Source: Escherichia coli | GTDB taxonomy: Bacteria > Pseudomonadota > Gammaproteobacteria > Enterobacterales > Enterobacteriaceae | DNA: 64,000 nt | NCBI RefSeq assembly: GCF_013122565.1 | Contig: NZ_CP053258.1 | Direction: 5' to 3' (one strand) | Shown: in pieces, positions 32,165-35,078 of the stretch | Numbering within the stretch: the first letter of the stretch is position 1 | Layout: the number at the start of each line of letters is the position of its first letter | Position numbers: made by a program

Positions 32165-35078
32165 TCACTTCCGGGTTAACAATACGCTGTAGCGTGGAAA
32201 AGAGATCGGTTGCCAGCATCCCGCGCGTTCCAAAACGCGCCGCCAGTACGTCAGCTGCCGCACCGTGCGCGACACAGCCTGCACAGGCTGCATCATACGG
32301 CGACAGTTTTTGCCCAAGCAATGCGCCAATAATACCAGAGAGCACATCGCCCATGCCGCCGCTTGCCATGCCTGCATTTCCGGCATCAATAATGCCTAAA
32401 GCGTCAGGATGGGCGGCGACCACGGTTCCGGCACCTTTCAGCACCGCTACGCCGCCATAACGTTGTACCAGACGTTTGGCGCAATGTAAGCGGTCACTTT
32501 CAATTTCAGCGACGGAACAGCCTAACAACCGTGCGGCCTCGCCAGGATGCGGCGTGATCACGCGATTGTGACGCTTATCGGGATTGATTGCCAGCAGGTT
32601 CAATGCATCGGCATCCCACAACATCGGTTTGCGAAAATTCTCAACTTTTTGCAGGGCTTTTTTCCCCCACTCTTGCTGGCCCAGACCGGGACCAATCACC
32701 ACCACATCGGCCCATTCCAGGCTTTCGGTAAGAGAGTCCATCGTCAGTTCATGCACCATCAATTCCGGTCGTGCAGTCAGCAGCGGCGCTATGTTTTCAC
32801 TGCGGGTCAGTACTCGGACTAAACCAGCACCAGCACGCAGCGCCGCTTCCCCCGTCATACGAATAGCCCCCGCCGTGCCGTGATCGCCTCCGATAATCAC
32901 CAGCCGCCCGTGATCGCCTTTATGCGAAGTCGGGCGACGCGGTTTCAGCCAGTGAGAAAGTTGTTCTGCCGAAAACCGCTGAATTTTCGTCTCCTGACCT
33001 GCCAGCCAGCTATCCAGCCCCAGTGAGTCAAAATGCAGTTGTCCGGTAACATCCCGCGCTTTTCCAGTGAGCAAGCCTGGTTTCAGCGCAATAAAAGTGA
33101 TGGTGTGATCGGCGTTGATCACCGCGCCTGGCGTAGCGCCGGTTTCAGCCAGCAGGCCGGAAGGGATATCAACCGCCACAATCGGCGCAGGATGGGAATT
33201 AGTGTGGTCGATTAACTGGCTAATGGATTCACGGGGCGCTTGCTGCAAGCCGGTACCGAGCAGCGCATCAACAATCAGATCTACCGATTCGGGCCAGACA
33301 ATATTCGAAGCATGGATCTCGCCTCCCGCGTTTAACCATGCTTCGCGTGCCAGCGCGGCCTCTTCCGGCAACGGTTTGTCGCTCTCCTGGGACAACAACG
33401 TGACCTCAATGCCGACCGCTTTGGCCAGTCGCGCGACCACGTAGCCATCGCCGCCGTTATTACCATGACCGCACAGCACCAGCCAATAGCGGGCGTCAGG
33501 ATAAGCCGTGCGACACACCTGGAATGCGGCTTCGCCAGCGCGAAGCATCAGCTCATAGAGTGTGAGCCCCAGCGCATCTGCTGCCTCGCGTTCTCCGCGG
33601 CGGATATCGTCGGCGTGCCAGACGGTGTGTGGTATACTTACGGGGTTTTTCTTCATTGTATGGTCCGTCATGTCAGAGCCCCTCGATCTCAATCAGTTAG
33701 CGCAAAAAATTAAACAGTGGGGGCTGGAACTGGGCTTTCAGCAGGTAGGTATTACCGATACCGATCTCAGCGAGTCCGAGCCCAAACTGCAAGCATGGCT
33801 GGACAAACAATACCACGGCGAAATGGACTGGATGGCGCGTCACGGTATGCTGCGCGCTCGCCCCCATGAGTTATTGCCCGGTACGCTGCGTGTGATCAGC
33901 GTGCGGATGAATTACCTTCCTGCTAACGCCGCATTTGCCAGCACGCTGAAAAACCCCAAACTCGGCTATGTCAGCCGTTATGCGCTGGGCCGTGACTATC
34001 ACAAACTTCTGCGCAACCGACTCAAAAAGCTGGGCGAGATGATTCAGCAACATTGTGTTTCGCTGAATTTTAGACCGTTTGTCGATTCTGCGCCTATTCT
34101 CGAGCGCCCGTTAGCTGAAAAAGCTGGGCTCGGCTGGACAGGTAAGCATTCACTTATCCTCAATCGCGAGGCCGGTTCGTTCTTCTTTTTAGGCGAATTG
34201 CTGGTCGATATTCCTCTGCCCGTGGATCAACCAGTCGAGGAAGGATGTGGTAAATGCGTGGCCTGTATGACGATTTGCCCGACCGGTGCCATCGTCGAGC
34301 CATATACCGTCGATGCTCGCCGCTGTATCTCTTATCTCACCATCGAACTGGAAGAGGCGATCCCGGAAGAGTTGCGTCCGTTAATGGGAAACCGTATTTA
34401 CGGTTGCGATGACTGCCAGCTTATCTGCCCGTGGAATCGCTATTCGCAACTCACTACAGAAGAGGATTTCAGCCCACGTAAGCCGCTACACGCACCGGAA
34501 CTCATTGAGTTATTCGCCTGGAGTGAAGAGAAGTTTTTAAAAGTCACGGAAGGTTCGGCGATTCGCCGTATAGGTCACCTGCGTTGGCTGCGTAATATTG
34601 CCGTAGCCTTAGGCAATGCCCCCTGGGATGAAACGATTCTGGCGGCGCTGGAGAGTCGTAAAGGTGAGCACCCACTTCTCGATGAGCACATAGCGTGGGC
34701 GATTGCGCAGCAAATCGAGAGACGAAATGCGTGCATAGTCGAAGTGCAATTGCCGAAAAAACAGCGTCTGGTTCGGGTGATTGAAAAAGGGTTACCGCGT
34801 GACGCCTGATTCATCCACAGCTTGTGAATAAAAATAAAAACGCATTGCAATTCAAGACGAATAAAATCGTCAAGTGATCGACTCGACAAAACGAAATCTT
34901 AATTTTTAATTTATCTATCAATAGGTTAAAAAAATATTATTCACCGTGCGAAGTTTCTTTGAAATTAAGATTACGGCCTGAGGCTGTGGATAACTCTGTT
35001 TACAAGAGTTTGTCAGAGACAACAAAAACCAGCAATAACGCATCGCGTCGCTGTGGATATTTTATTGAGAGAAGAATT

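Follow-up and report, generated by a model that had tools for sequence, protein, structure and literature searches.

Divergent excludons are neighbouring opposite-strand genes with 5′-overlapping transcripts, from which double-stranded RNA (dsRNA) arises that is processed by RNase III (Conway 2014; Lybecker 2014; PMC7373196; PMC12288877). Membership of the E. coli set requires detection in at least 50% of transcriptomes; ExcludonFinder places queG–nnr among only 16 divergent excludons of this organism, and lists yjeV–queG–nnr as one of three non-contiguous operons (PMC12288877). Most of the listed pairs overlap only in their untranslated regions, across a real spacer, whereas queG–nnr has no spacer and the coding sequences themselves overlap. 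The hallmark of an excludon is mutually exclusive expression; queG–nnr is classed here by transcript overlap and dsRNA.

A second point of comparison is the 4-nt ATGA start/stop overlap between genes on the same strand, which shares with nnr/queG a very short overlap at a start codon in a compact genome. ATGA pairs, however, are co-directional and their translation is coupled on one mRNA, while nnr and queG lie on opposite strands. Since these two genes are carried on different mRNAs, translational coupling is not possible and any interaction would have to come through transcription or antisense pairing.

We analysed this locus in a 64,000-nt stretch of E. coli DNA (the window). Our reading, to which we assign a probability of about 0.85, is that nnr and queG form a head-to-head pair in which the start codons overlap by two bases, the transcription units overlap by some 413 nt because the promoters face each other, and three expression signals lie within codons of the partner gene. 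Much of this is already published, namely the start overlap (in the reference annotation), the embedded queG promoter, the long nnr leader, the dsRNA and the excludon class. What is added here is incremental: sequence comparison supports both starts and suggests that a Shine–Dalgarno (SD) sequence and two −10 elements are held in place by constraint on synonymous sites of the partner gene. We found no paper that argues for the maintenance of these signals in this way.

The shared start codons

An earlier note on this DNA placed the start codons of nnr and queG within a single CATG, leaving zero intergenic space between the divergent genes. The features concerned are as follows.

32124–33671, minus strand: nnr (yjeF) coding sequence, 515 aa, with Pfam domains YjeF_N (residues 40–199) and Carb_kinase (258–496)
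33670–34809, plus strand: queG (yjeS) coding sequence, 379 aa, with Pfam domains DUF1730 (62–140) and Fer4_16 (193–256)
33669–33672: CATG containing both starts, the nnr ATG as the complement of 33671–33669 (minus strand) and the queG ATG at 33670–33672 (plus strand)

The tetramer is made up of C33669, A33670, T33671 and G33672 and is surrounded on the plus strand by ggtccgtCATGtcagag, the letters from 33660 to 33679 being atggtccgtCATGtcagagc. The two ATGs have 2 nt in common on opposite strands. The same 2-nt overlap appears in the annotation of E. coli K-12 (NC_000913.3: queG 4392928..4394067, minus strand; nnr 4394066..4395613, plus strand) and in that of an O145 strain annotated by PGAP (locus coordinates: nnr 1255..2802, minus strand; queG 2801..3940, plus strand). 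The sequence and both annotations thus agree with the note on the position of the starts, and there is indeed no space between the genes, since their coding sequences overlap by 2 nt. A 601-nt query across the junction found the region in 5425 of 5426 complete E. coli genomes; its identity to E. coli was at most 98.8%, and the window is Escherichia-like.

For comparison, 80 loci encoding QueG relatives were assembled, one genome per species, and Nnr was mapped onto them; the start of nnr was compared in the window and 29 Enterobacterales loci, from Escherichia through Yersinia, Budvicia and Edwardsiella. This comparison upholds the start placements of the earlier note: by comparative sequence evidence the starts are correctly placed and share at least one base, and the arrangement recurs in related genomes, so it is no annotation accident of a single one. 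A CATG tetramer has no statistical meaning by itself; judged from the sequences compared, its retention across Enterobacterales exceeds chance. The overlap is real and conserved, but it is already known, and the note had re-derived the standard annotation from raw sequence.

The start of nnr

Counted from an upstream TTG, the minus-strand open reading frame at 32124..33692 encodes 522 aa; from the ATG at 33671–33669 it encodes 515 aa, beginning MTDHTMKKNPVSIPHTVW. The protein contains the two domains of a bifunctional NAD(P)HX epimerase/dehydratase (PF03853, 1.2e-44; PF01256, 8.6e-86) and its sequence matches the TM0922 structures. Residues 1 to about 39 fall outside the Pfam domains, and the PDB has no E. 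coli Nnr or QueG entry able to fix an N-terminus.

A rival view would be that Nnr is translated from Met6 (ATG at 33656–33654), five codons downstream of Met1 and in frame with it. There would then be a 13-nt gap in place of the overlap between coding sequences, and the CATG would be a by-product of annotating the longest ORF that starts with ATG. The position of the N-terminal residues ahead of the YjeF_N domain is compatible with such a start, and one metagenome-assembled genome (MAG L018) carries a 1-nt insertion that puts Met1 out of frame and would force a start of the Met6 type. Conservation points firmly the other way. The Nnr frame reaches the ATG that overlaps the queG ATG within CATG in all 30 overlapping loci, and Met1 is in frame and kept in 29 of the 34 other Enterobacterales loci. 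The N-terminus follows the pattern M-T-D-H-(7 or 11 variable residues)-S-[IL]-P-H-S-V-W across the 30 loci, with Met1-Thr-Asp-His nearly invariant, while residue 6 varies (M, V, L, I, K, E or N) and is Met in only 9 of 30 genera. One genus has a 4-codon insertion between Met1 and the conserved part, and it preserves the frame. In five genera a stop codon lies directly upstream of Met1.

The ribosome-binding signal also favours Met1:

33679–33684, minus strand: SD sequence GAGGGG of nnr Met1, 7 nt before the ATG, complementary to queG Pro4–Leu5 (CCC CTC)

The predicted duplex of this site with the anti-SD has an energy of −7.2 kcal/mol, a value within the strongest 2.4% when 20-mers are taken at random from the window; Met6 reaches −3.2 kcal/mol, an ordinary value at the 33rd percentile. 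The upstream TTG (33692) was rejected as a start: it has no SD (+1.3 kcal/mol), and a stop codon intervenes between it and Met1 in five genera.

Further support for Met1 comes from the opposite strand, where the codons of queG that overlie its SD scarcely vary. Where residue 5 of QueG is Leu, the codon is always CTC in the 30 loci; its codon entropy of zero is the sole case among 41 conserved Leu columns of queG, for which the median is 1.92 bits. Asp6 is always GAT in the same loci, the only such column among 14 Asp columns, and codons 2–10 contain the five 5-codon windows that vary least at synonymous sites across the whole of queG. The SD of Met1 appears to be conserved because the synonymous sites of queG codons 4–6 are frozen. 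Photorhabdus and Xenorhabdus, which have no nnr next to queG, share the frozen CTC and GAT codons, so that part of the constraint may reflect a requirement of the queG 5′ end itself or phylogenetic inertia. Conservation of the block ATGGTCCGTC that precedes the queG ATG is absent from taxa without an nnr overlap. This is what a block encoding M-T-D-H should show, and it too speaks against Met6. Taken with the SD, these observations make initiation at Met6 very improbable, and we retain Met1 as the start of Nnr.

Codons 2–4 of nnr, ACG GAC CAT (33660–33668, corresponding to queG positions −10 to −2), are nearly invariant at the codon level (23/24, 24/25 and 27/27). This constraint stands although queG has no SD there; its source may be the 5′ end of nnr, the region where queG initiates, or both.

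N-terminal peptides and initiation profiling were sought for both proteins, and none was found in the published data searched. The TRAINSPOTTER N-terminomics supplement mentions neither nnr nor queG, and the sole match to 'nnr' in INRI-seq is in a table of antisense off-targets, irrelevant to the translation start.

The start of queG

Translation from the ATG at 33670 gives a QueG of 379 aa beginning MSEPLDLNQLAQKIKQWG. It has the DUF1730 domain (PF08331, 1.9e-24) and the double 4Fe–4S domain (PF13484, 1.6e-22) that together mark an epoxyqueuosine reductase, and from residue 6 onward it aligns with the solved structure of B. subtilis QueG (5d08; 3.9e-48).

A start elsewhere in this frame would be either an upstream GTG (33625 or 33562) or a downstream Met, from codon 52 onward. 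In favour of such a start, the window shows no stop in this frame over the 37 codons before the ATG, a stretch containing GTGs at −45 and −108, and the ATG as annotated lacks an SD (its value of −2.2 kcal/mol is ordinary). Both GTGs, however, lie upstream of the mapped transcription start site (TSS) at 33646. Moreover, there is no in-frame start upstream of the ATG in 17 of 36 Enterobacterales sequences, the window included, and several have a stop codon 2–8 codons upstream. The next in-frame start common to all 36 is codon 52, whose use would remove the conserved residues 6–51 that align with the solved structure, and all 80 loci align from residues 1–9. The ATG at 33670 is the only start available in all genera compared, and a different one is, in our judgement, scarcely credible.

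The first 75 nt of the mapped queG transcript are less structured than 187 of 200 shuffled sequences. This weak structure fits SD-independent initiation on a short open leader, and we propose that QueG may be initiated in this manner on an unstructured leader of 24 nt.

Two promoters in partner codons

The earlier note had reasoned that each promoter must lie inside the other coding sequence, and published maps support this, placing the nnr promoter in queG and the queG TSS in nnr. The positions of the TSSs come from one dataset (Conway et al. 2014) as reproduced in U00096.2 coordinates in the supplement of PMC7373196, and conversion to window coordinates was anchored by a reported small RNA, CAUGACGGACCAUACAAUGAAG, and the K-12 locus. 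The ROSE supplement gave no match for a TSS of nnr or queG. TSS mapping had been put forward in the note as a check on the starts; the data of Conway et al. (via PMC7373196) move neither of them downstream.

33626–33638, plus strand: queG promoter, extended −10 TGTG-TGgTATACT with the hexamer at 33633–33638; reverse complement of nnr Ser12-Ile13-Pro14-His15
33646, plus strand: queG TSS, the end of the Conway et al. overlap (4392114, U00096.2), 24 nt upstream of the ATG
34067–34072, minus strand: −10 TAAAAT of the nnr operon, inside queG Asn133-Phe134-Arg135 (AAT TTT AGA)
34059, minus strand: nnr-operon TSS, Conway et al. promoter 4391701 (U00096.2), 388 nt upstream of the nnr ATG

The queG promoter resembles extended −10 (TGn) sigma-70 promoters: TGgTATACT (33630–33638) contains TGn followed by TAnnnT, the TSS is 8 nt past the −10 and the −35 is poor (TCGGCG). 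It differs from the usual members of this class, to which it is assigned by motif, in lying wholly within codons of the partner gene and reading Ser-Ile/Leu-Pro-His on the other strand. The core TGgTATACT is the reverse complement of nnr codons 12–14, and these show a uniform codon choice: AGT for Ser12 (29/29), the rare ATA for Ile13 (18/18) and CCA for Pro14 (28/28). TGnTAnnnT is found upstream of queG in 61 of 76 loci, compared with 0–5 of 76 in control windows of the same length, and the extended −10 stays at −40 to −43 in five Enterobacterales loci where nnr no longer overlaps. A strain, dPqueG, has been built with primers that delete window positions 33610–33639, inside nnr (PMC10950094); in the sections of that paper covered here, its effects are reported on datA RNA, not on queG mRNA.

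The nnr-operon TSS is also 8 nt past its −10. Of the 21 loci of the Enterobacteriaceae type, 19 have an unchanged GGTCTAAAATTCAGCG, a sequence that takes in the rare AGA codon as well as the TSS, while flanking third positions vary. Arg is encoded by CGN in most of the other families compared, which weakens the hexamer to GAAAAT or GGAAAT. TAAAAT being intact only within loci of the Enterobacteriaceae type, this promoter may be specific to the family, or weaker elsewhere. The nnr promoter feeds a long unit that includes the essential tsaE together with mutL, miaA and hfq.

A consensus scan for sigma-70 promoters and terminators between 33300 and 34100 found nothing; the scan needs a reasonable −35, and because both promoters are without one this result is not evidence of absence. 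Rfam returned no RNA family other than three tRNAs between 33300 and 35800, so the 388-nt nnr leader contains no known riboswitch or small RNA.

Some of these signals lie partly in rare codons (ATA, AGA, AGT), and synonymous recoding or 'optimisation' of either gene would be expected to damage the other silently. Designs of E. coli with 57 codons dispense with AGA, AGT and TTA, among others. The value of the arrangement is mostly practical: as a clean and well-supported case it shows that gene finders and curators should not penalise divergent start–start overlaps.

Overlapping transcripts and their possible effect

The facing promoters define a region that is transcribed from both strands:

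33646–34059, both strands: doubly transcribed region of 413 nt between face-to-face promoters, source of the dsRNA cut by RNase III

The supplement of PMC7373196 gives the nnr unit of Conway et al. as a plus-strand unit running from promoter 4391701 to terminator 4408049, and its overlap with the divergent queG unit as 413 nt (4391701–4392114). Within this region lie dsRNA locus MS-212 of Lybecker et al. (4391717–4392100, window 33660–34043) and duplexes of about 21 nt captured by p19 from both strands (4391754–4392109, window 33651–34006), as listed in the same supplement. Overlapping transcripts from opposite-strand neighbours are thus documented by Conway et al. and ExcludonFinder, and dsRNA with RNase III processing in the overlap by the p19 and Lybecker data.

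These observations suggest a mechanism. Three signals are carried in opposite-strand codons of the partner, with the queG −10 in nnr codons 12–14, the nnr SD in queG codons 4–5 and the nnr −10 in queG codons 133–135. The 388-nt nnr leader would lie antisense to queG from its leader through the start codon to codon 129, and the 24-nt queG leader antisense to nnr codons 1–8. Pairing of the mRNAs across both start codons could then hide the two start regions and mark the two RNAs for RNase III cleavage, and converging polymerases may collide, so that the two units would interfere mutually in the manner of an excludon.

It is also quite conceivable, if somewhat short of an even chance, that the starts and the embedded promoters are real and the overlap has no regulatory role, being the neutral result of the nnr N-terminus extending across a very short spacer, with harmless dsRNA. 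Reciprocal expression data for queG and nnr were not found. Outside Enterobacterales the spacer between the genes ranges from −2 to about 250 nt, and in Brenneria, Pectobacterium, Photorhabdus and Xenorhabdus the genes no longer overlap or are no longer adjacent, with the queG promoter retained, all of which would suit a neutral origin. Against it, the pair stays head-to-head across several gammaproteobacterial orders, and the locus belongs both to the top 20 coding-gene dsRNA clusters of stationary phase (PMC7373196) and to the E. coli excludon set detected in at least 50% of transcriptomes. The pair is a tractable one for asking whether interference of the excludon type matters in E. coli, as the starts can be separated by single bases: C33669 affects the nnr ATG only and G33672 the queG ATG only.

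Distribution of the arrangement

In addition to the 29 of 34 other Enterobacterales loci, the CATG overlap is seen in Tolumonas (L070) and in a gammaproteobacterial MAG (L067). Besides the frameshifted MAG L018, the exceptions are Brenneria (L028), where nnr starts 147 nt away, Pectobacterium (L031), where it is about 1.2 kb away, and Photorhabdus and Xenorhabdus (L033, L036 and L046), which have no adjacent nnr; the arrangement can evidently be lost. The Brenneria and Pectobacterium loci (positions about 2850–3001) retain the CATG, an SD-like GTAGGGG and the queG extended −10 at −40/−41 without overlap by nnr, and as natural 'uncoupled' variants they are useful for comparison.

Vibrionales, Alteromonadales and Aeromonadales mostly keep the two genes head-to-head, with the range of spacers given above. 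Outside Enterobacterales the queG extended −10 (TGGTAAACT, TGCTAGACT or TGTTAAACT) also lies inside the Nnr codons for S-L-P-H/Q, so the placement of this promoter in Nnr codons is older than the exact start–start overlap. The queG promoter and leader, on the opposite strand, may be the main influence on the 16-residue N-terminal extension of enterobacterial Nnr. A bolder proposal is that Ser-Ile/Leu-Pro-His is kept near the N-terminus of gammaproteobacterial Nnr mainly as the reverse complement of the queG −10, and that the face-to-face promoters form an ancient antisense switch reciprocally coupling queG, and with it queuosine maturation, to the nnr-tsaE-amiB-mutL-miaA-hfq unit; we regard this as speculative and rather unlikely.

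Neighbouring features

Two further patches of nnr show almost no synonymous variation across 30 genera, codons 358–369 (32565–32600, minus strand) and 394–396 (32484–32492, minus strand), both 330–450 nt upstream of the tsaE ATG (32152). The first reads AAC CTn CTG GCA ATC AAT CCC GAT AAA CGT CAC AAT CGC and is promoter-like (CTGGCA, 18 nt, CACAAT); the second is an invariant CGC TTA CTT that includes the rare TTA. On this pattern of variation the patches may act as promoters within nnr, or as RNA elements, for tsaE-amiB-mutL. The end of nnr and the beginning of tsaE, encoded on one strand, share 29 nt (32124–32152), as annotated in K-12.

Between the queG stop and the tRNA-Gly cluster (34810–35080) there are two matches to the DnaA box, TTATTCACA (34823–34831, minus strand) and TTATCCACA (34985–34993, minus strand). 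PMC10950094 places datA, the DnaA-inactivating locus, and the small yjeV ORF at this position between queG and tRNA-Gly in E. coli. Rfam identifies three tRNA-Gly genes on the minus strand at 35082–35498. The second of these is separated from the third by about 160 nt here and in the O145 strain, compared with about 35 nt in K-12, an excess of some 120 nt.
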